Of a stretch of 56,702 bases of DNA, positions 1-24,277 are shown in pieces. Location of the stretch: NCBI GenBank assembly GCA_048882485.1, contig JBHLRP010000020.1, positions 1-56,702 of the forward strand, written 5' to 3'. The translations under genes were made by a program, and so were the position numbers. Each line of letters opens with the position of its first letter. Within the stretch, counting starts at the first letter, position 1. The notes beneath the pieces are model-generated. The model was not told the DNA's origin and did no database searches. It saw only the letters and a program-made list of their open reading frames with translations. The DNA is from Candidatus Thorarchaeota archaeon. GTDB taxonomy: Archaea; Asgardarchaeota; Thorarchaeia; Thorarchaeales; Thorarchaeaceae.

Positions 1-234
1 TTCAGCATGGGTCAGGAAAAATCAAAAGAGAAGGAAGATGCCTTAATGCCATTCCAAGTCAATAGGGCTCTTGTTGGGAAAGCAAGCAAAGATGTGATTG
101 TGATGCACTGCTTGCCGGCTCATCGTGATGAGGAGATTGAGAGTGCAGTTATGGATGGTAAACATTCTGTTGTGTTCGACCAAGCAGAAAACAGACTTCA
201 CGCTCAGAAAGGGATTATGGCATTAATTGTATAA
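1..234 (+). CDS. argF: Ornithine carbamoyltransferase, C-terminal part (5' truncated by window)
   Basis: SMG, HCLP and [13 protein letters not shown] motifs of OTCase. Confidence 0.93.
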
Positions 235-245
235 TCGATAGGCGA

Positions 246-665
246 CTATAGCTCAGGATGCCGGCGAAACCAGCTCATTAGCCGTCTTCTCTTCTGGTTG
301 TCATTCGGTGGAACCCTTAAAGCCCACATCGCCGCGTCTTTTTGTTGGCGCGTCCTAGTTTGCCACTGAGAAGTCACCTGCCCAGTACGTTTCGATAACG
401 ACAATCGTATGAATCTGGGTTTTCTCATTAGTATGCCTAAATCAAGGCATATAGCGCATTCATCATCTAAATGACGACATCTATGATTCAAAACGAGTTG
501 TTTTAGCTCTTTTGCGATAGCTGCGGTCTTCCTGTTCTTCAGTTTAGACAGTCCGTCTAGGTCGCCAATCTTGAGAGTCAGATACTCTTCTGAAAAACCT
601 CCTCCATAGGTTCGTTTCTCTGGAGTCCCAAATTTCGATATGAACTCAAGATATTTGGAGGGCAA
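246..665 (-). CDS. Hypothetical basic protein (HxCxHxxxxCxxC cluster)
   Basis: 139-aa ORF with no recognised family; Cys/His cluster. Confidence 0.5.
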   Translation of the reverse strand: MPSKYLEFISKFGTPEKRTYGGGFSEEYLTLKIGDLDGLSKLKNRKTAAIAKELKQLVLNHRCRHLDDECAICLDLGILMRKPRFIRLSLSKRTGQVTSQWQTRTRQQKDAAMWALRVPPNDNQKRRRLMSWFRRHPEL

Positions 666-714
666 TCGCTGGCCCCCTCGGGATCATGAATTGTCACTGA
701 TCGATTGATGCCAA

Positions 715-1211
715 TCAGATCTTCATCATTTCTGTAAATCGTAATCCATTCATCTTCAGGAATAACTTCCTTGAGATACGCGATTTTGATTTCGTCTTGT
801 AGTCAACAACTGAGGCGATGACCTTTGAGAGTTCCAGAATCCGTATCGTTTCGAACTTCTTGAGTTTTCTCTTGATAAGCATCCTAGTATTAGAGTCCCT
901 CCAAGAAACCAGCCCGCAAACAGCAGGCGTCCCCCTCTTCTTACGGATGTAGAAGATACTGTCGTTGTTTTCTATGCTCTTTGTGAGCAACTTTCTTTCG
1001 ATTCTCTGTTGTTTTTTATCTTATGATTTCTCCAGCCCTTGTCAAGGAAACAGTTCACCGAAGCAGACACCACTAGAGAATGCCATCTTCGATTCAAACA
1101 TTCAATCAGGGATTCTTTCAGGTCTGATTCCTTCCAGGTGACTTGCTCATCCATGGCCCTCACTTTGCGCAGCATTTCCTTTGCATGAATAAAAATGACT
1201 GTTCCGGTCAC
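715..1211 (-). pseudogene. Two short overlapping ORFs (972..1211, 715..990), possibly one frameshifted or degraded gene
   Basis: Consecutive overlapping minus-strand ORFs inside the argF-bracketed island; no family recognised. Confidence 0.25.
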
Positions 1212-1304
1212 CTGCCTAATTGAGCTCAGACCGAGGCTTGATGCTACATAGGCAAATGAAGAAGTGGAAAATGATTAAATTCCCTCCGATTTCATACATC
1301 CATT

Positions 1305-2735
1305 GTGACAGGTAGAAGGAACCCTCCTCCCAGAAGGATTCAGAGTAGAATTGTTAAGTTGGAGCCAGTAGAGAACACGCAACAGCTGAAGTCGAAACTA
1401 GATGGGTGTGACACCGAGAACACTGAACAGCTCACTATCCGATTGTATCATGAGATCTTTACCGAAACCCTGTCACTTCGGATGTTGTCCCAATTCCAGA
1501 ACCTGAGGCGTGTCGAGATATCTGGAGGTAGTTATAGCTCAATAGACCTATCTTCCCTGCAGGAATTGGTTCCTCTTGAGAAACTCATCATCAAAAACAA
1601 TAGAACTCTAAGAGAGGTTGACCTTTGCCCCGTCTTCAAGGCTCCACGTATCAAGTCTATTTTGCTGTGGAAGATGCCATACCTTGATACCATAAAACTG
1701 GACGATATAGGGTCGTGTGAGTCATTACGTTCTCTCATGTTTGAGAGTGGATTTATAGGTTCAAATCTCTCACTCATCGGCGAGTGCGGGGGACTACAGG
1801 AACTCACGTTCCATGCCAGAATGGAGGACATTGACCTCTGGGACATCGCTGGACTACGAAACCTTTCACTCCTCTCAATAAAGCTAATGCTACAGTCCTA
1901 TAGAAACGAGTCACAACCAGTAGACTGCACTCCGCTCCTGGCACTACCAAAGCTCATGTCTCTGCAACTCCTTAGTTATAGCGGACACACTCAGAATATG
2001 CCAATCAAGATCGGTCTTCCGAGATTTGTTTCGATGGAATGTGGAAAGACATGGGAGCGAGTCAATGAGTCCTTGGACAAGATCGAGTACTCCCATGTCT
2101 TGAGCCTGACCTGGAGGAAGGCCTATCCAGTACTTGAGGAATATGCATCACGTTTTGCTCCCATCTACTGGCCAAGCATCAACAGGTATGTCTTGGAAAC
2201 CTGCGGTGTCAGTAATACCAGATACCACATTGACTTGGCAAGGTGTGTTATCCCTTCTGATTTGCTACAGCTGGCCGAACCGGAGCCCACGAAACCAGCC
2301 ACTGAGAAGATTGAGAGAGCCCTTGATGAGAACATCGTTGACATGGTGACAAGATACCTGGAGGAGGGCAATGACACGAGCGGGTTCGACATCGATAAGA
2401 TTGCAACCAATGAACCAAGGCTATCTTCCTTTATCCCGAAGGTAATAGAGTTACGTTCCCAGGAGATACGCGGCCTTACCTTCATTCAGGTACCGTATAG
2501 AGCTGGTGCAGGATTCGAGAAATGGCAGGCTACAGAACAATACCACACGCATCCTTTGATGGACACGGTATATGGCAGACAGGCTATTGAGGACAAAGAA
2601 TCACATATCAACAGACCAACACTCAGAGAACAATATATGATGCCGTTGAAGGAAATAGAGAGCATTGAGAGGCGGTTGAATGAATCAGACATCGAAACAG
2701 ACTGGAGATACATATCAGTATATGAGTGGAGGTGA
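1305..2735 (+). CDS. Leucine-rich repeat protein with C-terminal non-repeat domain
   Basis: Degenerate LRRs (SIDLSSLQELVPLEKLII, EVDLCPV, IDLWDIAGLRNLSLLSI). Confidence 0.8.
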   Translation: MTGRRNPPPRRIQSRIVKLEPVENTQQLKSKLDGCDTENTEQLTIRLYHEIFTETLSLRMLSQFQNLRRVEISGGSYSSIDLSSLQELVPLEKLIIKNNRTLREVDLCPVFKAPRIKSILLWKMPYLDTIKLDDIGSCESLRSLMFESGFIGSNLSLIGECGGLQELTFHARMEDIDLWDIAGLRNLSLLSIKLMLQSYRNESQPVDCTPLLALPKLMSLQLLSYSGHTQNMPIKIGLPRFVSMECGKTWERVNESLDKIEYSHVLSLTWRKAYPVLEEYASRFAPIYWPSINRYVLETCGVSNTRYHIDLARCVIPSDLLQLAEPEPTKPATEKIERALDENIVDMVTRYLEEGNDTSGFDIDKIATNEPRLSSFIPKVIELRSQEIRGLTFIQVPYRAGAGFEKWQATEQYHTHPLMDTVYGRQAIEDKESHINRPTLREQYMMPLKEIESIERRLNESDIETDWRYISVYEWR

Positions 2736-2925
2736 GCCTCAGTTTACCTATGCAAGTATTGGCTCACTCTGCGTCTTCTCTTTCTACTCATTACGGTTCT
2801 CAATGGTTGCCTTCCTTAGAAGAAGGCATTGTTCATTCATCTCTCCTGAGATGAAGTGATTCATTCTCCAGTCAAGACTTATCACGGTATCGTTCTCTGG
2901 TATAAGACGACCTGAGGAATGAAGT

Positions 2926-3969
2926 ATGAGCATCACACTGACCTGTACATTCAAGTCAGGAGAAGGACCTAAGAGTATCGAGTTTCCGAAAGATGTAGAA
3001 GAGATAAACCTTCCAGGGAGGGGGATGGTCAGCATTGATCTCTCAGCTATCAGTTTATGCACCAATCTTCAACGGCTTATTCTGAACAGCAACTACCTTC
3101 AAGACATCGACCTTACACCACTCAGGACATGTGCTGAACTCCAAGAGATTAACCTTGGTGCCAATGATCTCAAGAATATCGATCTCACGCCACTAAGTTC
3201 GTGCAATTCACTCAATCAGATTGAGTTGGAGGTAAACTCTCTCATGGAAATTGATCTCACGCCACTTGGTTCCTGCATAAATCTTGAGCAGCTCAAGTTG
3301 AACAGGAATAAATTCCAGCACATCGATCTTACGCCACTGAATTCCTTGATCTTTCTTGAAGACCTTGACTTGGGATTCAATCAGCTCAGCAGTATAGACC
3401 TTGGACCACTCCAAAATTGTTCGAATCTTCAAATATTGGGACTACACATCAACAATATCAAATCCATCGATCTTGAACCGCTCAAAGGATGCCAGAATCT
3501 TCTGGAACTTAGGCTCAGCCAAAACAAGCTTCTATCTATCGACCTAGAGCCTCTCAGGTCTTGTGTGTTCTTAGAAACACTCAGTCTATTTATGAATCAG
3601 CTGCAGGATATCAATCTCTCACCTCTAAGTAAATGTACTCATCTTCGTATTCTCCTCCTCTCTCAGAACCAACTTCAAAACATAGATCTTTTCCCCCTCC
3701 GGGCGTGCACTGAGATCCGCCGTCTCAATCTGGGTGGCAACCAGCTCCGAGAGATTGACCTGAAGCCACTCAGCCGCAGTGACAGCCTTGAATTTCTTCA
3801 CTTGGATAGAAATCAACTTCAAAGTGTTGATCTCACTTCAATCCAATCGGGAATTGTGGAATTGAACGGAAACGATCTCCATACATTAGAACTGCCTAGT
3901 ATCTCTAGAGAGGTCTTTGTACACTATGAGCATAATCCAAAGACCAGAATCATACAAAGCATACCTTGA
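2926..3969 (+). CDS. Leucine-rich repeat protein, about 13 tandem 22-aa repeats
   Basis: Regular IDLxPLxxCxxLxxLxLxxNxL repeats. Confidence 0.93.
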   Translation: MSITLTCTFKSGEGPKSIEFPKDVEEINLPGRGMVSIDLSAISLCTNLQRLILNSNYLQDIDLTPLRTCAELQEINLGANDLKNIDLTPLSSCNSLNQIELEVNSLMEIDLTPLGSCINLEQLKLNRNKFQHIDLTPLNSLIFLEDLDLGFNQLSSIDLGPLQNCSNLQILGLHINNIKSIDLEPLKGCQNLLELRLSQNKLLSIDLEPLRSCVFLETLSLFMNQLQDINLSPLSKCTHLRILLLSQNQLQNIDLFPLRACTEIRRLNLGGNQLREIDLKPLSRSDSLEFLHLDRNQLQSVDLTSIQSGIVELNGNDLHTLELPSISREVFVHYEHNPKTRIIQSIP

Positions 3970-4122
3970 TTGTGAGCCTTGCCAATCCCATCATCCCCGA
4001 GCCGCCTAGTTCCTATGTAGGATTCGCTACTTCAACTTGAGAAGACCCTGCATTAAAGTTATTACTGGCATGAAGTCATCTGGAAATGGTGATGGTAGCT
4101 ATCGCAGGAGAAATCTGAACTC

Positions 4123-4239
4123 ATGCTAATCCCAGAACTGACCTCCGATATAATGGATGATGCAAAGTATACTGTTGTATTTGACCAAGCAGAGAACCGT
4201 CTGCATGCGCAAAAGGGAATAATGGCACTCATAGTGTAA
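4123..4239 (+). pseudogene. Second copy (orphan fragment) of the argF 3' end
   Basis: Frame reads [38 protein letters not shown]; the last 21 aa are identical to argF at 169..231. Confidence 0.88.
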
Positions 4240-4251
4240 GAGGCTGTAGAA

Positions 4252-5223
4252 TTGGTGCGAGAAATTGTTGCCGTGGGCAGAATCAATGTGGACGTGATTA
4301 TGGAAGTCGGCAGGATTCCAGCAAAGAATGAGCATGTCACAAGCAGACAAGGTTTCATATCTTTTGGCGGTTCGGCATCAAACTTTGCTGCCCAAGCAGC
4401 TAGACTCGGTGTGGGTACAGGGATAGTCGGTTGCATTGGTGATGACCTCTATGGGCAACAGGCCTTGAAAGACCTATCAAATGCTGGTGTGGACACTAGT
4501 TCAGTTCTAGTCTTGGACAACCAGCCAACTGGCATATTCTTTCTAGCGGAGCAGAAGAATGGGGACAGAGTTGTTGTTTCAGAACCAGGCGCAAATCGAT
4601 TTCTAGAGAAACATGTTCTCGATGAAGACCTTCTGATAAAATCTACAGTTGTGCATCTCGCTGGTGCATTTCCAATGTTGACATCTAGAATCCAAGAGGT
4701 GTCCACAGCGAATGGAATGATATTTTCCTTTGATCCGGGAAGGGCCGCGGGCTCTTTAGACTTCAAATCAATCCTTCGGAGAACCGATCTTCTGTTTCTA
4801 AACCAAGGAGAGCTACGCAACTACTTCAAGATCAACCCGAACGAGAAGGCATTGAAAGCGTTTGCCAAGACAATACCGGGAATTGTGATAGTCAAGAAGG
4901 GAGAGAAAGGCGCGGTTGCTACTGATGGGTTTGAGTACTGCACGTCCCCGGTTTTCGATGTCCCTGCGGTTGACACATTGGGAGCTGGAGATGCTTTTGC
5001 AGCTGGCTTTGTCACTGCCTGGACGCGCTCAGAGAGGATTGAACAAGCGCTTCATGTCGCTAATGCGGTTGCGGCTCTGACAATTACCAAGAAGGGTGCT
5101 CAAAACGGACAGCCCACAATGGATGAAACAGCTAGGCTTCTGAAGAAGAACAGAGTAGCAATCGACTCAGTATTGAGAACCTTCAAGCCCAAGAAACGAA
5201 GAAAGGGAAAGGGTAGGCGATAG
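4252..5223 (+). CDS. PfkB/ribokinase-family carbohydrate kinase
   Basis: GGSASN and DTLGAGDAFAAG PfkB signatures. Confidence 0.92.
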   Translation: MVREIVAVGRINVDVIMEVGRIPAKNEHVTSRQGFISFGGSASNFAAQAARLGVGTGIVGCIGDDLYGQQALKDLSNAGVDTSSVLVLDNQPTGIFFLAEQKNGDRVVVSEPGANRFLEKHVLDEDLLIKSTVVHLAGAFPMLTSRIQEVSTANGMIFSFDPGRAAGSLDFKSILRRTDLLFLNQGELRNYFKINPNEKALKAFAKTIPGIVIVKKGEKGAVATDGFEYCTSPVFDVPAVDTLGAGDAFAAGFVTAWTRSERIEQALHVANAVAALTITKKGAQNGQPTMDETARLLKKNRVAIDSVLRTFKPKKRRKGKGRR

Positions 5224-5293
5224 TCGGTATTACCGTCGTAGTATTCCACTTTTTCTTAGGAGAATACACCGATATTAGCACGGAACTGAAGGT

Positions 5294-6487
5294 GTGATTG
5301 AGCTTATGCATCCATTATTGGAAGAGGTCCTTCGAACAGCGCCAACTGGGCAACGTGAAACACAGTATGGCAAGTCCTCAAAGAAGACTCCTGCGAAATC
5401 TGCCACAACTGATGAGGATCTGGCTAATATTTTGGAATCCGTCAGCGCCAGGATACTCGTAGTTGGAGTTGGGGGAGCTGGTAACAATGCAGTAACACGT
5501 TTGATGCAAGTTGGAGTAGAAGGAGCGGAAACACTTGCAGCTAACACGGATGCGCAGGACCTCTATTTTTGCAGCTCAAACCATAAGCTGCTTCTAGGCA
5601 GGGAAACCTGTGGAGGACTTGGAGCTGGAAACGACCCCGACATAGGTGAAGCCGCAGCTCTAGAAACATATGAGGTCATTAAAGATGTGATTCGAGGCGA
5701 TCTTGTGTTCATAACCGCTGGAATGGGCGGTGGAACAGGAACAGGCGCCGCACCGCTAATTGCCAAAGCCGCACAAGAAAATGGTGCTCTGACAGTGGCT
5801 ATTGTGTGTCTGCCCTTTGAAGTGGAGGGTGACACTAGAAGACGGAATGCTCAGCGTGGCCTCAATGCAATCATGGAACATGTGGATACTCTGATAGCCA
5901 TACCCAATGAGAAGCTCCTGGAGATAGCTCCTGATCTTTCTTTGCCAGAGGCCTTCATGGTGGCCGATGAAGTCCTAGTGAGAGCTGTAAAGGGCATCGC
6001 GGAATTGATTTCAAAGCCTGGGCTTGTGAACCTAGACTTTGCTGATGTCCGTACAACGATGAAGAATGGTGGCGTTTCAATCATCGCACTTGGCGAGGGA
6101 GAGGGAGAAAACAGAGCCGAAGACGCTGTAATCAATGCTCTCAGGAACCCCTTGATAGAAGTTTCAATTGAGAACGCGCGCAACATTCTTGTGAATGTCA
6201 GTGGTAGCACTGACCTTCAGTTGTCTGAGGCAAAGCAAGTCGTACAACTGGTGACTGAGCAAGTGAATCCTGGAGTAGAGATAATCTATGGGGCATTGAT
6301 CGCTCCAGAACTTGAGGACCGAATTCGTGTGACCATTATTGCATCTGGTGTGAGCTCTCCGTATGTCTTTGATAAGACAGAGAGAGTAATGCCTTTAGCA
6401 GACGACCTGAAGACTGACTTGGGACTTCAGAGGTTGGATGAATCCGACATGGACAATCAGGAAGGGTTAAAAGAAGACTCGGACTGA
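5294..6487 (+). CDS. ftsZ: Cell division GTPase FtsZ (FtsZ1 type)
   Basis: GVGGAGNN, GGGTGTG tubulin signature, NLDFAD; archaeal ftsZ-secE-spt5 synteny. Confidence 0.97.
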   Translation: MIELMHPLLEEVLRTAPTGQRETQYGKSSKKTPAKSATTDEDLANILESVSARILVVGVGGAGNNAVTRLMQVGVEGAETLAANTDAQDLYFCSSNHKLLLGRETCGGLGAGNDPDIGEAAALETYEVIKDVIRGDLVFITAGMGGGTGTGAAPLIAKAAQENGALTVAIVCLPFEVEGDTRRRNAQRGLNAIMEHVDTLIAIPNEKLLEIAPDLSLPEAFMVADEVLVRAVKGIAELISKPGLVNLDFADVRTTMKNGGVSIIALGEGEGENRAEDAVINALRNPLIEVSIENARNILVNVSGSTDLQLSEAKQVVQLVTEQVNPGVEIIYGALIAPELEDRIRVTIIASGVSSPYVFDKTERVMPLADDLKTDLGLQRLDESDMDNQEGLKEDSD

Positions 6488-6797: not shown

Positions 6798-7475
6798 TTG
6801 GAGCCAAAAAGCAGCATTTACGCGGTTCGTACTACCATAGGACAAGAGAAGGGCGTTACAGACCTTATAACTACAGCAGTCATAGGTGAAACAGATGTCT
6901 GGGTGTGTCCTTTCTGTTCTGAGGAGTTTTCTTCCAATGAAGCCACCCTAGAGCACATGAGCAGCTGCAAGAAGAAGAAAAGGAAGACAGGAGAGCCCAA
7001 GTTGGTATCGACCAACCAGCTTCTGGGACGGGTCAAGGCAATTTTGGTACCCGAAACTCTTCGAGGCTATGTATTCCTAGAGACCCTTGAGTTTAGAGAT
7101 GTGGAGATTGCAATCTCAGGTGTACCGCATGTTAGAGGCCGTGTAGGTGGCAAGGTCAGCTTTGAAGAGATTGATAAGTTCTTGGTGCCAAAGCCGGCTG
7201 CAGAAGGAATCTCAACTGGAGATGTTGTAGAGATCATTTCTGGACCATTTAAGGGAGAACGAGCCAAGGTTGCACGAGTTGATGCGGCAAAGGAAGAGCT
7301 CATTTTGGAGCTGTTAGACAGCCCGCATACAATTCCGATACGTGTCCACGCAGACTTTGCTAAAATAGTTGAGAAAGCACATCGTGAGGAAGAGGTCGAG
7401 GTTTCCGGTGAAGATGAGGACCGAGCTGGGAAGGAAGAGGATTTGGAAGACGACTCTTTCTGGGCGCACGACTAG
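6798..7475 (+). CDS. spt5: Transcription elongation factor Spt5 with inserted CCHC zinc finger and acidic tail
   Basis: NGN (YAVRTTIGQE, LRGYVFLE) and KOW (GDVVEIISGPFKG) domains. Confidence 0.95.
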   Translation: MEPKSSIYAVRTTIGQEKGVTDLITTAVIGETDVWVCPFCSEEFSSNEATLEHMSSCKKKKRKTGEPKLVSTNQLLGRVKAILVPETLRGYVFLETLEFRDVEIAISGVPHVRGRVGGKVSFEEIDKFLVPKPAAEGISTGDVVEIISGPFKGERAKVARVDAAKEELILELLDSPHTIPIRVHADFAKIVEKAHREEEVEVSGEDEDRAGKEEDLEDDSFWAHD

Positions 7476-7697
7476 CTGGAAGCATTCAGTCACTCCAAAA
7501 TGCTTAAAACATTCTAGATATGGGGTCGAATCATCTCCTTAATTGGACATCGACGCAAGACGTCGTGTCTGGGGTGAAGAAATTGACAATGAATGCAGTA
7601 GACCGAACTGGACAGAGTACTACTTGTGCCATTAGGTCGACCATAATCGGGGTGTGTAAAGACCCATCGATGTTACTGCATCAGGAGTTGTGAAGAA

Positions 7698-8204
7698 TTG
7701 AGCGAAACTAAGCCAATTATTGTAGAGGCGATGGTGGAGGGTGGCAAAGCTTCCGGAGGGCCGCCAATTGGGCCGGCTCTTGGACCTACTGGGGTAAACA
7801 TATTCCAGGTCGTCACCAAGATCAATGAGGTCACTGAAGCCTTTGCTGGTCTCAAGGTACCTGTGAAGATAACAGTCAACCCAAATGACAAGAGCTTCAC
7901 CGTTGATGTGGGAACTCCACCAACTAGCGCACTAATCTTGAAAGAGATTGGCCAACCAAAGGGCTCGGGAGAGCCAAACACAAACATCATTGGGAACCTG
8001 ACCATTGACCAGATTAAGTCAATTGCAAAAGGCAAAGCGAGTGATATCTCCGCACTCAACATGAAGAGTGCAGCTCTGATTGTGTCTGGCACCTGCGTTT
8101 CAATGGGTGTGACTGTGGAAGGAAAGACTGCCAAGGAGTTCCAGCAGGAAATCAAAGACGGGGTCTGGGACAGCCAGCTGGACGAACCACTCAGGGAGGG
8201 CTAA
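7698..8204 (+). CDS. rpl11: Ribosomal protein uL11
   Basis: GGKASGGPPIGPALGP, GTCVSMG. Confidence 0.96.
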   Translation: MSETKPIIVEAMVEGGKASGGPPIGPALGPTGVNIFQVVTKINEVTEAFAGLKVPVKITVNPNDKSFTVDVGTPPTSALILKEIGQPKGSGEPNTNIIGNLTIDQIKSIAKGKASDISALNMKSAALIVSGTCVSMGVTVEGKTAKEFQQEIKDGVWDSQLDEPLREG

Positions 8205-8207
8205 TTT

Positions 8208-8870
8208 ATGTCAGTCAAAGTTGAACCCATAGAAGCTGCCGTCGCTGAGGCAAGAAAACTAGGAACTAAGAAGAAAAGGAAGTTCAAGCAGAGCTTTGAT
8301 GTTGCTGTCAACTTCAGGAAGAAGGAGCTTGATATTACCAAGCCAGAGAATCGATTCAATCAGGAAGTTGTGCTCCCGAATGCGATGTTTCCGCCTGCAA
8401 AGGTATGCGCCTTTGGTGATGGTGAGTTCGCGGAAAATGCTCTGGCTGCTGGAGTTAAGAGAGTCGTATCAAAAGACGAGATCCCAAAGCTGGGCGATGA
8501 GAAGAAGGAGAGAAAGGCCCTAGCAAAGGGCTTCGACTTTTTCATTGCAGCAGTAGACGCGATGCCCCTCGTGGGTCGTTACCTGGGACAGGCATTGGGG
8601 CCCAGAGGGAAGATGCCAAGACCCTTCCCACCACAAGCAGATCTCAGTCCTGTGGTAGAGCAGTATCAACGGACTGTCCGAGTAAGGATGAGGAATACCC
8701 CAACCTTCCACGTCAAGGTTGGTCATGTGAATATGGCTGACAAGGAGATTGCTGACAACATTGCGGCAGTTCTGAGCTTCGTGGACAGCAAGGGATTCCT
8801 GGACCGTGTCGGCAGCGTGGTCGTAAAAAGCACAATGGGACCAACGGTCAATGTGCCAATCGAGAGGTGA
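8208..8870 (+). CDS. rpl1: Ribosomal protein uL1
   Basis: RKFKQSFD, LGPRGKMP, KSTMGP. Confidence 0.96.
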   Translation: MSVKVEPIEAAVAEARKLGTKKKRKFKQSFDVAVNFRKKELDITKPENRFNQEVVLPNAMFPPAKVCAFGDGEFAENALAAGVKRVVSKDEIPKLGDEKKERKALAKGFDFFIAAVDAMPLVGRYLGQALGPRGKMPRPFPPQADLSPVVEQYQRTVRVRMRNTPTFHVKVGHVNMADKEIADNIAAVLSFVDSKGFLDRVGSVVVKSTMGPTVNVPIER

Positions 8871-8875
8871 TTGAA

Positions 8876-9886
8876 ATGTCAGTTTACGAGAAGACGATTC
8901 CACAATGGAAACTTGACAAAGTGGCTGAGCTCGCCGCCAGAATTGACGAGAACGAGATGATTGGCCTTGTGAACGTGGAAGGCGTTGGAGCAAAACAACT
9001 TTCAGGCATCAGAGAGAGCCTAAGAGGCTCGGCCACTATGATGATGGCCCGAAATACTCTGATGATTAGGGCTCTTGAAGCAGCTAAGAAGAAGGGAATC
9101 AAGGACCTCATAAAGCATGTTTCAGGTCCTGTGGCCTTCATGTTCAGCAATCAGGATCCATTCGTTCTGACAACGTTCCTTGGTGAGAACAAGGCTGCGG
9201 CACCAGCCAAAGGCGGTCAGACTGCACCAAAGGACATCATTGTTCCAGCCATGAATACGGGTGTTGCTCCTGGTCCATTCATCAGCGAGTTGGCCGCATT
9301 AAAGATTCCGGCTCGTGTAAAAGGAGGAGTCATTCATGTCACTGATGACACTGTTGCTGTCAAGGCTGGAGATGTAATCTCAAACGCCATGGCGCAGATG
9401 TTGACAAGACTGGGAATCGAACCCATGGAACTCCAGCTGAAGCTCATAGCAGCATATGCTGATGGAGCGGTAATGATTGGTGACAGTCTTGAGATTGACC
9501 TAAGTGGTCTGTTGTCACAGGTCATAGCAGGACATCAGTACGCGGTCAATCTTTCGATAAACATCGGCTACCCCACGGTAGAAACGATGCCATTGCTGCT
9601 TGCTAAGGCTAGTATTGAAGCCAAGAGGCTGACTATGGAGATAGGCTTTTTCGAGCCAGATATGATTGGCGAGTTCTTAGCCAAGGCAAACTCAGAAGCG
9701 TTTGCGCTTGCAGCAATAATCTCAGAGAAAGACCCAGACGCAATATCCTCCGATGCCCTTAGCCAAGTTCAGGCTGCTGCTGCATCAGCTACGGCGGCTC
9801 CAACAGAAGAGCCGGAGCAACCTGAAGAGGCTGAGGAAGAAGAGGAAGAGGAAGAAGTTGCAGGCCTCGGCGGCCTGTTTGGATAA
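8876..9886 (+). CDS. rplP0: Ribosomal protein uL10 (P0)
   Basis: ARNTL, TGVAPGP, acidic hinge and GLGGLFG C-terminus; ATG 8876 follows an AGGTGA SD. Confidence 0.95.
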   Translation: MSVYEKTIPQWKLDKVAELAARIDENEMIGLVNVEGVGAKQLSGIRESLRGSATMMMARNTLMIRALEAAKKKGIKDLIKHVSGPVAFMFSNQDPFVLTTFLGENKAAAPAKGGQTAPKDIIVPAMNTGVAPGPFISELAALKIPARVKGGVIHVTDDTVAVKAGDVISNAMAQMLTRLGIEPMELQLKLIAAYADGAVMIGDSLEIDLSGLLSQVIAGHQYAVNLSINIGYPTVETMPLLLAKASIEAKRLTMEIGFFEPDMIGEFLAKANSEAFALAAIISEKDPDAISSDALSQVQAAAASATAAPTEEPEQPEEAEEEEEEEEVAGLGGLFG

Positions 9887-10342: not shown

Positions 10343-11131
10343 GTGAAGATTGTATATCATCCCCTGATGCGCAATTCGTATGATGGGACTCCTGCAGGTG
10401 CATCGGGTAGACTTGACACTGCTATTGAGATTCTAAGTAAGCATCCAGAATACGAGTTCGTTGAGCCAAGTCCTGCTACAGATGAGCAAATTCTACGAGC
10501 TCATGGTCCGGGACATCTGGATGAGGTAAGGCGAGATAATGACTACACACGCCAGGGGCTCCTTTACGAGATAGCGGCGCTCGCAGCTGGTGGAGCTATT
10601 ATGACTGCAGAGATAGCAGTGGAAGGAGAGCCTGCCTTCGGACTGATCCGTCCTCCAGGTCACCATGCATCGTGGGACAGCTATTGGGGATACTGCTATC
10701 ACAACAATATTGCAGTGTCACTCCTCCATCTTAAGGCTCTGAGGAAGATCGAAACTGCATTCATACTGGACTTTGACCTTCACACTGGAGATGGCAATAT
10801 CAATATCTTGGGAGATGACAGGGATTTTGTCATCTATAATCCTCGGGGGCATGGAGATGATGCGTATCTGGCAGACACGAAGAGAGCTTTAGACTCCGTT
10901 CAAGATGTGGACATTATTGTTGCTTCTGCTGGATTTGATCAATATATTGACGACTGGGGAAGCAACCTCTCAACATGTGCCTTTAGGAAGATTGGTAAGA
11001 TGATGCATGATTTTGCTATGGAGAGATGTGAGGGCAGGAGATATGGTCTCCTAGAGGGAGGTTATAATTTTGAGGACCTCGGAAAGAACATTCTTGCCTT
11101 TTGCGAGGGTATAAGATTAGGGATAGACTAG
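10343..11131 (+). CDS. Zn-dependent histone deacetylase-family (AcuC/HDAC-like) protein
   Basis: RPPGHHA, DFDLHTGDG, SAGFD, LEGGY motifs. Confidence 0.93.
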   Translation: MKIVYHPLMRNSYDGTPAGASGRLDTAIEILSKHPEYEFVEPSPATDEQILRAHGPGHLDEVRRDNDYTRQGLLYEIAALAAGGAIMTAEIAVEGEPAFGLIRPPGHHASWDSYWGYCYHNNIAVSLLHLKALRKIETAFILDFDLHTGDGNINILGDDRDFVIYNPRGHGDDAYLADTKRALDSVQDVDIIVASAGFDQYIDDWGSNLSTCAFRKIGKMMHDFAMERCEGRRYGLLEGGYNFEDLGKNILAFCEGIRLGID

Positions 11132-18601: not shown

Positions 18602-18646
18602 CCGGGGAGTGGCAGGCCAAACAACACTCCCCTGGTCCCCCTTTTC
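18602..18646 (+). terminator. Hairpin plus T-tract after MFS gene
   Basis: GGGGAGTG/CACTCCCC stem followed by CTTTT. Confidence 0.5.
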
Positions 18647-18753
18647 TAGCGTTATTCAGTGACCCATGATGATTTGCATGATTCGTGAAGAGCATCCATT
18701 GAGTCGGCGTTTACCTTAAGGATTATAGTGTACGAGCTGATTATCTGTAGCAT

Positions 18754-19098
18754 GTGAACGACATGACCAAAGCTTCCTATCCAGATATCATCAAGAAGCT
18801 CCCGAAAGTAAAACACTCAATGGATGGCGTCGAGGGCTGGCTCGCTCAGGGGAAGGATTTTCAGATAGCATTCTTTGAGATTCAACCCACAGCAAAGGTG
18901 CCACCACACAGCCACGGAGCTCAGTTCGGAGTCGTAATGGAGGGCGAAATTACCTTAACAGTAGGCGATAACACTCAAGTCTATGGCAAGGGTGACACCT
19001 ATATTATTCCTGCAGGCGTTATTCACCATGCAGAGTGTAAGTCTGTTGTCCTTGTAATGGACTATTTTGATGATGCAGACAGATATGAGACCGAATAG
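18754..19098 (+). CDS. Cupin-domain protein
   Basis: PPHSH...QFG, IPAGVIH cupin motifs. Confidence 0.88.
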   Translation: MNDMTKASYPDIIKKLPKVKHSMDGVEGWLAQGKDFQIAFFEIQPTAKVPPHSHGAQFGVVMEGEITLTVGDNTQVYGKGDTYIIPAGVIHHAECKSVVLVMDYFDDADRYETE

Positions 19099-20311: not shown

Positions 20312-20399
20312 GCGGAGGTTGCCAAGCCTGGCCAAAGGCGCTAGGTTGAGGGCCTAGTTCAGTAGTGATTCGCGAGTTCAAATCTCGCCCTCCGCACCA
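20312..20399 (+). tRNA. tRNA-Leu(GAG)
   Basis: GCGGAGG/CCTCCGC acceptor, CTAGG-TTGAGGG-CCTAG, long variable arm, encoded CCA. Confidence 0.96.
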
Positions 20400-20875: not shown

Positions 20876-20898
20876 TCAAATCTCGCCCTCCGCACCAC
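20876..20898 (+). repeat. Direct repeat of the tRNA-Leu 3' end (att-like copy 2)
   Basis: TCAAATCTCGCCCTCCGCACCAC identical to 20378..20400. Confidence 0.95.
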
Positions 20899-21220: not shown

Positions 21221-21247
21221 TTCAAATCTCGCCCTCCGCACCACTTT
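21221..21247 (+). repeat. Direct repeat of the tRNA-Leu 3' end (att-like copy 3)
   Basis: TTCAAATCTCGCCCTCCGCACCACTTT identical to 20377..20403. Confidence 0.95.
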
Positions 21248-23272: not shown

Positions 23273-24277
23273 ACGACAAATCCAAAGATAGGAATCATTG
23301 GTACAGGCAACATGGGAAGGATTCATGCCCGGGTTCTGAGTAACATTCGAGCTCTCACAGCCGTGGCTGATACCGATGTGAAGCAGGCTGAAGAAGTGGC
23401 CCAGATGTATAACGTAGAATCGTTTAACGACTTTGAGTCATTGATTGAGCACGCGGAGTTAGATGGCGTAATCATTTCCACTCCAACTGCAACACATGCC
23501 GAAATAGCTGAGAGTGTTGCCAAGAAACAGGATGGAATAAGGGGCATTCTGATTGAGAAACCGTTGGCGAGCAACCTCAAGGATGCCCGCAAGCTTGCTG
23601 AAGTCTTAAGGAAGAAGGATATCACTGTCCTAGTTGGACACTCTGAGATTTACAACCCTGTAGTTGAACGGGCATTAAACCTGATCAAAGAAGGCGCCAT
23701 TGGAGTCCCTCAGACGGTGATCCATGATAGGCGCGGATTTGTCCAGGCAGAAAGATTGTCATCTCTAGGAGACGTGTTTGAAGATATTGGGGTTCATGAT
23801 TTTGACATCATGACTCGGATAAGCAGTGGTAACGCCACTCTCTATGCTCAATGCCAGACCAAGAATGAGATTCTGAACACGGGAAATGTGACGGTGAAGT
23901 TTGAAAACGAGGCGCAACACATCTTCCATTTGTCAAGGCAATATGTGGGCAGGAAAAGGAGCATGGATGTTTCTGGAACAAAAGGAACCTTGAACCTTGA
24001 CCTCTTTGGACAGGTCATTAAGGTTCAAGACCTCGATCAAGCGCCTCTGGCTGACAGCAGGACGATTCAGCTAATAGAACGTGGTGCTACAATCAAAGTG
24101 TATGGAGAACCTATTCTACAGGTGATAACTGACTTCCTACACTGCATAGAAACAGGTAGCTCACCTAAGGTTGATTTGGATGATGGGATTTTAGCCCTCG
24201 AAGTGGTTGAAGCAGCGAGAAGGAGTGCAATCTCAGGGAAGGTTGTTAATATCAATATTCAGTCTCGACACATCTGA
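23273..24277 (+). CDS. Gfo/Idh/MocA-family oxidoreductase (probable ACG start)
   Basis: KIGIIGTGNMG Rossmann motif begins upstream of ATG 23312; EKP and DIGVHD motifs. Confidence 0.88.
   Translation, partial: TTNPKIGIIGTGNMGRIHARVLSNIRALTAVADTDVKQAEEVAQMYNVESFNDFESLIEHAELDGVIISTPTATHAEIAESVAKKQDGIRGILIEKPLASNLKDARKLAEVLRKKDITVLVGHSEIYNPVVERALNLIKEGAIGVPQTVIHDRRGFVQAERLSSLGDVFEDIGVHDFDIMTRISSGNATLYAQCQTKNEILNTGNVTVKFENEAQHIFHLSRQYVGRKRSMDVSGTKGTLNLDLFGQVIKVQDLDQAPLADSRTIQLIERGATIKVYGEPILQVITDFLHCIETGSSPKVDLDDGILALEVVEAARRSAISGKVVNINIQSRHI

Follow-up and report, generated by a model that had tools for sequence, protein, structure and literature searches.

An insert at the 3' end of argF in a Thorarchaeota genome resembles a decayed homing element with a replacement gene end

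The argF locus and its two gene ends

We analyzed a stretch of 56,702 nucleotides (the window) from a Candidatus Thorarchaeota archaeon (contig JBHLRP010000020.1 of assembly GCA_048882485.1), which begins inside argF, the gene for ornithine carbamoyltransferase, and in which argF is interrupted by an inserted element of 4,002 bp. The locus lies on an archaeal (Asgard-type) chromosomal contig, with ftsZ and ribosomal protein L11 genes downstream. The native part of argF (positions 1 to 135, plus strand; Pfam OTCace, E 2e-29) continues in frame into a replacement end carried by the element (tail A; 136 to 234, plus strand), which is unlike the native type. Within the element (136 to 4137), which is missing from an empty allele and from all 14 relatives at this locus, tail A is followed by the remnant of a homing-endonuclease-like pseudogene of a helix-turn-helix (HTH) and LAGLIDADG type (249 to 1020, minus strand; weak beyond 844), by two cargo genes, orf476 (1305 to 2735, plus strand) and LRR347, which encodes a leucine-rich-repeat (LRR) protein (2926 to 3969, plus strand), and by a non-coding right end (3970 to 4137) that terminates in ...ATCCCAGAA. 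Beyond the insert stands the displaced native end of argF (tail B; 4138 to 4239, plus strand, although native-like sequence may begin at 4134). Its stop codon (4237 to 4239) is separated by a spacer of 12 nucleotides (nt) from the start, at 4252, of a pfkB-family sugar kinase gene (4252 to 5223, plus strand; Pfam PfkB, E 4.2e-53), the ancestral neighbor of argF.

The window starts at base 1 of contig C20, and the 5' part of argF resides on another contig (C40), the last 77 nt of which are identical to positions 1 to 77 of the window. Joining the two contigs restored an intact argF reading frame of 307 amino acids (aa) with 95% identity to the nearest relatives.

The two tails share their last 21 residues, encoded at 169 to 234 and 4174 to 4239 (stop codons included). 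Translation bore out the description given in the initial annotation: 16 of the 66 nt and 14 of the 21 sense codons differ, all of them synonymously. Compared with chance, the repeat stood out in a blastn search of the 4-Mb genome (76% over 71 nt, E 2e-7). The similarity does extend upstream of the repeat, as had also been noted. The downstream (orphan) tail is argF-like from the codon for E at 4135 onward (ELTSDIMDDAKYT...), 34 codons in total, and its 38-aa reading frame matches Pfam OTCace with an E value of 4.9e-8. The absence of nonsynonymous change, which had been claimed for the two copies, holds for the last 21 codons only: in the 13 codons upstream of these, the encoded proteins are strongly different (the orphan reads ELTSDIMDDAKYT here), and a further replacement, of serine by threonine, was found at position 4172 when the orphan was compared with its relatives. 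At this position, the orphan carries ACT (T), and the empty allele and all relatives examined carry AGT, AGC, or TCx (S). Apart from this T-for-S exchange, the displaced tail has no nonsynonymous differences; the exchange may mark the onset of decay.

Comparison with relatives identified the native tail. In 14 relatives (12 of the same genus and 2 of other genera), argF directly abuts pfkB, which is followed by ftsZ, and in 13 of these 14 the spacer between argF and pfkB measures 12 nt, so that the orphan's stop 12 bp before pfkB corresponds to a native junction, as had been supposed. The argF tails of the relatives read EELTSDIMDDxKYS..., like tail B, and tail A represents another type. Tail B displayed 94% aa identity to the nearest relatives' argF tails, few nt differences from two of them (G005 and G002), and three differences from the co-occurring empty allele. 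Since the tails of the relatives match B and not A, the native end is tail B, now displaced, and the insert brought tail A. A second argF tail was found in only 2 of the 86 species-level genomes of the family, the present genome (G000) and a related genome (G052); hence the 38-aa frame is no conserved gene in its own right, a possibility that the initial annotation had named as one that would undo its reading. A third case, a candidate in G075, was rejected because argF is cut there by the contig end.

Empty and occupied alleles in natural samples

We mapped Logan contigs from four public sequencing runs (X2, X4, X5, and X6) onto positions 1 to 5300 of the window. Run X2 may be the sample of origin and therefore does not count as independent, and X4 carries no flag marking it as a potential source. 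The left junction was bridged by zero-mismatch contigs from X2 (92 to 993) and X4 (48 to 993), and the right junction was bridged by near-identical contigs, with two or three differing letters each, from X2 (2276 to 5300), X4 (2218 to 4202), and X5 (3794 to 4242). An empty allele was represented by contigs that join position 135 directly to position 4138, skipping 4,002 positions, in X4, X5, and X6 (depths of 11.5, 14.5, and 33.4, respectively), and in X6 a single contig of 2,558 nt spans both flanks. The joint therefore delimits the insert to positions 136 to 4137 and indicates that both alleles coexist in the same sediments. The element of about 3.9 kb that the initial annotation had placed in argF, supplying a foreign 3' end and displacing the native tail, is thus exactly 4,002 bp long. 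No letters are shared at the junction 135|4138, and the longest exact match between the two tails comprises 11 nt and lies 50 nt away from the junction.

Between the empty and the occupied allele, the flanking sequences diverge by about 1%, including single-nucleotide polymorphisms (SNPs) at positions 78 and 81. The presence of these SNPs in the co-occurring empty allele accounts for the break of the contig after the 77-mer. Parts of the island lacked contig cover in X6, which was given no weight. Contigs of X2, X4, and X5 all read TT at full depth at positions 4042 to 4043, where the window reads AA; this is probably a small error or a variant in the assembled genome.

A mosaic allele was found in a further relative (G014). 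Its argF carries no insert but is of the tail A type for 15 codons from the exact insertion point (3 differences in 45 nt) and of the native type thereafter (5 differences in 66 nt). The argF tail of its sister genome (G009), the flanks of which are near-identical to those of G014, is native throughout. By its sequence, the mosaic looks like the footprint expected from loss of an element, by recombination between tails A and B, or from break repair in which only part of the sequence was copied from an occupied allele.

An endonuclease-like remnant, its protein family, and recurrence at other gene ends

The pseudogene remnant adjoins argF in convergent orientation, with 11 nt between the stop codons. 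It is related to two large proteins encoded elsewhere in the same genome (C57:6809-10864, 1,351 aa; C14:1-2424, cut by the contig end), and a tblastn search with the former (C57p) recovered the remnant with an E value of 2.9e-18. A family profile built from 28 members matched the remnant in three pieces: window positions 249 to 683 corresponded to profile positions 402 to 532 (E 4e-36), 581 to 802 in another frame corresponded to positions 354 to 394 (E 1e-9), and 718 to 1020 corresponded weakly to positions 158 to 204 (E 0.011). This pattern indicates a frameshift (near 660 to 680), an internal deletion of about 150 residues, and a lost N terminus. Motif 1 of the LAGLIDADG pair was lost in the deletion; motif 2 and the C-terminal region remain. 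Searched against metagenome contigs, the remnant gave one weak match (39% over 54 residues) on a 2.3-kb contig. The statement that neither an integrase nor a transposase is present stood, in that Pfam detected no recombinase domain in the eight larger frames of the island or in the corresponding element of G052; it needs amending where it implied that a gene for mobility is missing, given the decayed LAGLIDADG homing-endonuclease-like gene at 249 to 844 on the minus strand. We found no convincing terminal inverted repeats of the insert.

LRR347 matches Pfam LRR_8 (E 1.2e-24), LRR_4 (E 7.3e-22), and LRR_5 (E 2e-14) and has many paralogs in the genome. orf476 has no Pfam match; its N-terminal part is weakly LRR-like, with 30% identity over 115 aa to LRR347, and full-length homologs were detected only in two genomes of another genus. 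The cargo DNA had no DNA-level match in the 85 other genomes of the family. LRR genes as a regular cargo were considered and rejected: they occurred at 3 of 44 other family loci, which is close to the genome background and does not constitute an enrichment.

Members of the protein family measure about 570 to 1,470 aa and comprise HTH and acidic N-terminal regions; the HTH domains were recognized by Pfam. The family is multicopy (up to eight matches per genome) and patchy, being present in 52 of 87 genomes of the class, and its members frequently sit at contig ends, and many persist only as C-terminal fragments. Elsewhere in the phylum, it was common in one other taxonomic family (14 of 19 genomes) and was not found in several others that were searched (0 of 21 and 0 of 40 genomes, for example). 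Viral contigs searched with the G052 protein yielded no match. The C57 paralog is an intact member of 1,351 aa that combines a long, acidic N-terminal region with several HTH motifs; an open reading frame (ORF) of 1,019 aa precedes it on the same strand (locus C57:6809-13934), and it converges on a thiolase/DUF35 gene pair.

An AlphaFold2 (AF2) model of the 574-aa member from G052, computed from the 28-sequence alignment, reached a mean confidence score (pLDDT) of 88.6 and a predicted template modeling score (pTM) of 0.82. The top matches of this model in a Foldseek search of the PDB were all LAGLIDADG proteins, mostly homing enzymes; they comprised I-Tsp061I (E 2.5e-5, TM score on target 0.62), I-DmoI (TM score on target 0.65), PI-SceI, the TliVMA intein endonuclease, the bI3 maturase, and the regulator WhiA. 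According to the model, the relative of the remnant in G052 is a protein of two-domain LAGLIDADG fold with two LAGLIDADG helices. The motifs read LYSIVISDG and LEELLPEEA, the model helices end at 297 and 395, and acidic residues are conserved at these places: all 28 aligned members carry D at column 297 and D or E at column 396. As judged from the alignment, this conservation favors an active nuclease over a WhiA-like regulator, without proving it.

The layout at argF was found again in G052, which belongs to another genus (g7). There, argF (6972 to 8099) is followed by the convergent 574-aa family member (8149 to 9873), a non-coding stretch of about 600 nt, an orphan argF tail (10946 to 11059), pfkB, and ftsZ; this minimal element holds only the LAGLIDADG-like gene. 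In both genomes, the orphan begins with (I/V)PELTSD after CCAGAR, which places the junction at the same codon in two genera. The element-borne tails of the two genomes are identical over codons 23 to 32 (30 nt), and the native tails differ from them and from each other. Tail A is therefore not a copy of tail B, and the proposal that the tails descend from different lineages rather than from a local duplication gained support from this comparison as well as from the relatives. The final CCAGAR is the only likeness between the right ends of the two elements, which otherwise gave no convincing alignment. Divergence of the element-borne from the native tail amounts to 56% of nt in G000 and 38% in G052 over the 13 to 14 codons beside the insertion point, versus 24% and 15%, respectively, further on.

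We searched 45 family loci for ORF ends repeated beyond the endonuclease gene; 5 had too little flanking sequence. Tail duplication was observed at 6 of the 40 loci with both flanks (two at argF, two at ahcY, and two at cysteine desulfurase genes), compared to 4 of 120 random windows of G000. Because the genomes are related and the control covered one search direction only, this difference is indicative and does not amount to a formal test. The target gene and the endonuclease gene converge at all six positive loci. At the ahcY locus of G000, ahcY (419 aa; C4:101061-102320) is followed by a family remnant (102402 to 102602, minus strand) and an orphan tail (104435 to 104614), in which the last 60 codons of the gene are repeated 2.1 kb downstream with 73% identity over 60 aa (locus L120:5062-8615). 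The further positives were ahcY in G094 and class-V aminotransferase (cysteine desulfurase) genes in G078 and G045.

Two side observations concern such gene ends. In a genome of the same genus (G012:C4:19177-22289; loci L124 and L077), ahcY matches in two pieces (aa 1 to 359 and 350 to 419) that lie 8 nt apart, and downstream of the split gene lies an intact family member (618 aa) in convergent orientation. In one of the random control windows (G000 C27), an ORF of 380 aa has its final 56 residues repeated 5.4 kb downstream at 59% identity (about 18607 to 18819 and 24067 to 24234; E 1e-25), which may mark another gene-end cassette site.

A proposed homing cycle and competing explanations

Taken together, these data make it likely that the island is a decayed, integrase-free LAGLIDADG homing element that carries a recoded replacement end for argF together with LRR cargo. 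In unoccupied argF alleles, the endonuclease would cut immediately downstream of the conserved codons for HCLPAHRDE(E), and the break would be repaired from an occupied allele, whereby the replacement tail and the endonuclease gene would be copied in. The insert entered argF six codons past HCLP, a motif conserved in all carbamoyltransferases; homing enzymes favor conserved positions of this kind. Because the tail supplied by the element continues the reading frame, argF would remain intact, and the altered sequence of this tail beside the insertion point would remove the target. The concentration of divergence next to the insertion point is what immunity of an occupied allele would require, a pattern that is not specific, since nowhere in the protein is constraint weaker than in this stretch. 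The native tail would thereby be pushed downstream and orphaned beside pfkB. In G000, the endonuclease gene would then have decayed through the frameshift, the internal deletion, and the loss of its N terminus, with the accessory genes orf476 and LRR347 now occupying most of the insert. The data fit a homing-endonuclease cycle of invasion of empty alleles, fixation or polymorphism, endonuclease decay, and loss. That a protein of this family cleaves argF, and that homing rather than ordinary recombination spread the insert, we infer.

Several observations weigh against this interpretation. With its dead remnant, the present island can only be moved by ordinary recombination, and it could have spread between strains by ordinary homologous recombination. 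The C-terminal part of the remnant displayed 29% identity to the argF-associated protein of G052 and 37% to members at other sites, so that the argF elements of the two genomes do not clearly belong to the same endonuclease lineage. The G052 gene has an in-frame TAG codon (L042:9886-9888, G052:C109) between a 151-aa N-terminal frame and the 578-aa LAGLIDADG core, which may reflect early decay, two separate products, or read-through. Pfam reported no LAGLIDADG match in the G052 protein, and in the C14p paralog LAGLIDADG_3 remained below threshold (E 0.042). A sequence profile search of the PDB with the family returned only a chance match and nothing relevant. WhiA, which combines LAGLIDADG and HTH regions, is a regulator and not a nuclease, and its appearance among the structural matches illustrates that proteins of this composition can be non-nucleases. 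Finally, 34 of the 40 endonuclease loci had no tail duplication within about 7 kb, and a search for one at the intact C57 paralog, beside the thiolase/DUF35 gene pair, found none on that contig.

Some of these points would suit a different explanation, in which the endonuclease-like gene is a passenger or a regulator and the insert arose by illegitimate or homologous recombination, such as the import from a different lineage of a divergent segment flanked by argF sequence, and spread only by ordinary recombination between strains. Such exchange is plausible because the flanks of the two alleles differ by only about 1%, and the dead remnant in G000, the distant relationship between the G000 and G052 proteins, and the non-nuclease nature of WhiA-type proteins would all be compatible with it. 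We nevertheless consider this explanation unlikely, given that the junction falls at the same codon in two genera, that tail duplications accompany the family at three different housekeeping genes, its members invariably lying next to the replacement tail in convergent orientation, and that the catalytic acidic residues are kept in 28 of 28 members.

An integrase-type island that used an attachment (att) site in the 3' end of argF and later lost its integrase would resemble e14 and phage 21 in the icd gene of E. coli. There, a tyrosine integrase acts on an att core; the element's own copy, with numerous synonymous differences, takes the place of the 3' end of icd, and the former end persists at the far junction as a pseudogene. 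The replacement end with its synonymous differences and the displaced pseudo-tail at argF correspond to this outcome. In contrast to e14, the argF island has neither a recombinase domain in the ORFs examined nor a shared core at its junction, the 11-nt match between the tails lying away from 135|4138, and the minimal G052 element consists of the LAGLIDADG-like gene only; loss of an integrase therefore appears highly improbable to us. Least credible is an assembly chimera of two strains, which the initial annotation had listed as a possible refutation, or a local tandem duplication. Strain variants are present in the samples, and the contig does break inside argF with an overlap of 77 nt, but this break is accounted for by the SNPs at 78 and 81, and the bridging of both junctions by contigs of several runs refutes a chimera.

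If the island is a homing element as proposed, it differs from the free-standing homing endonuclease genes of phages (the T4 Seg and Mob enzymes and intronless homing). Those genes likewise reside outside introns and inteins; their products cut alleles that lack the endonuclease gene, with co-conversion of the flanks. To our knowledge, they are situated between genes and are not accompanied by a duplicated replacement gene end, whereas the argF island carries one.

The argF island is most likely analogous to the mobile endonuclease ORFs (mORFs) of fungal mitochondria, the closest kind of element described, in which host genes have received a foreign C terminus (Allomyces macrogynus atp6; Glomus sp. 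atp6, atp9, cox2, and nad3) (PMC3630166). In both cases, a homing-type endonuclease ORF (mostly LAGLIDADG in the mORFs) travels with a divergent 3' end of the host gene, the inserted end continues the reading frame, and the native end, which is the copy most similar to that of close relatives, now lies further downstream (PMC3630166). ORF-less alleles also exist in both (PMC3630166), here in the 14 relatives and three runs. The mORFs differ in that they belong to a mitochondrial genome rather than to an archaeal chromosome with argF, ahcY, and cysteine desulfurase genes as targets. Their small ORF lies on the strand of the host gene and is often fused to it in phase, whereas the genes described here are on the opposite strand, convergent, and never fused. 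The family proteins are also much larger, and the G000 copy adds accessory LRR genes.

An Asgard chromosomal element, HeimM2 of Ca. Heimdallarchaeum, likewise pairs an LRR gene with a homing-endonuclease-like gene at a single fixed site, and its authors suggest that the endonuclease gives site-specific integration (Wu et al. 2022, PMC8813620). It differs from the argF island in being located between a 16S rRNA gene and a tRNA gene, and the passages of its description that were consulted mention no replacement gene end or displaced copy (PMC8813620). In the literature searched, homing with a replacement gene end has been described for fungal mitochondria only and not for archaeal or other cellular chromosomes. 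New here are argF as a target, the empty and occupied alleles in natural samples, the near-intact counterpart in G052 at the same codon, and the footprint in G014.

The evidence leans, with considerable reserve, toward a wider proposal: Thorarchaeota and at least one other Asgard family would carry widespread, integrase-free chromosomal homing elements, each composed of a giant HTH-LAGLIDADG gene and a recoded gene end. They would enter essential genes (argF, ahcY, cysteine desulfurase genes, and others) at the 3' end, leave orphan tails and mosaic footprints, and cause gene ends to accumulate accessory genes such as those for LRR proteins. If this is true, Asgard archaea insert genes site specifically without an integrase or transposase, by means of a homing endonuclease that travels together with a substitute end for its essential target gene. 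Such elements would explain why these genomes contain islands without integrases, orphaned gene ends, and genes with mosaic tails. They would also constitute a chromosomal counterpart to the fungal mitochondrial mORFs in the archaeal lineage closest to eukaryotes and provide a set of large natural LAGLIDADG proteins with predictable, directly testable targets. As the argF locus is polymorphic in natural samples, the gain, decay, and loss of an element can be followed in the field.

A different arrangement was observed further along the window. The profile search detected no member of the endonuclease family between positions 20312 and 21243, where the last 22 to 23 nt of a tRNA-Leu(GAG) gene (20312 to 20399) recur exactly at 20876 to 20897 and at 21221 to 21243 and thereby bound two small cassettes.

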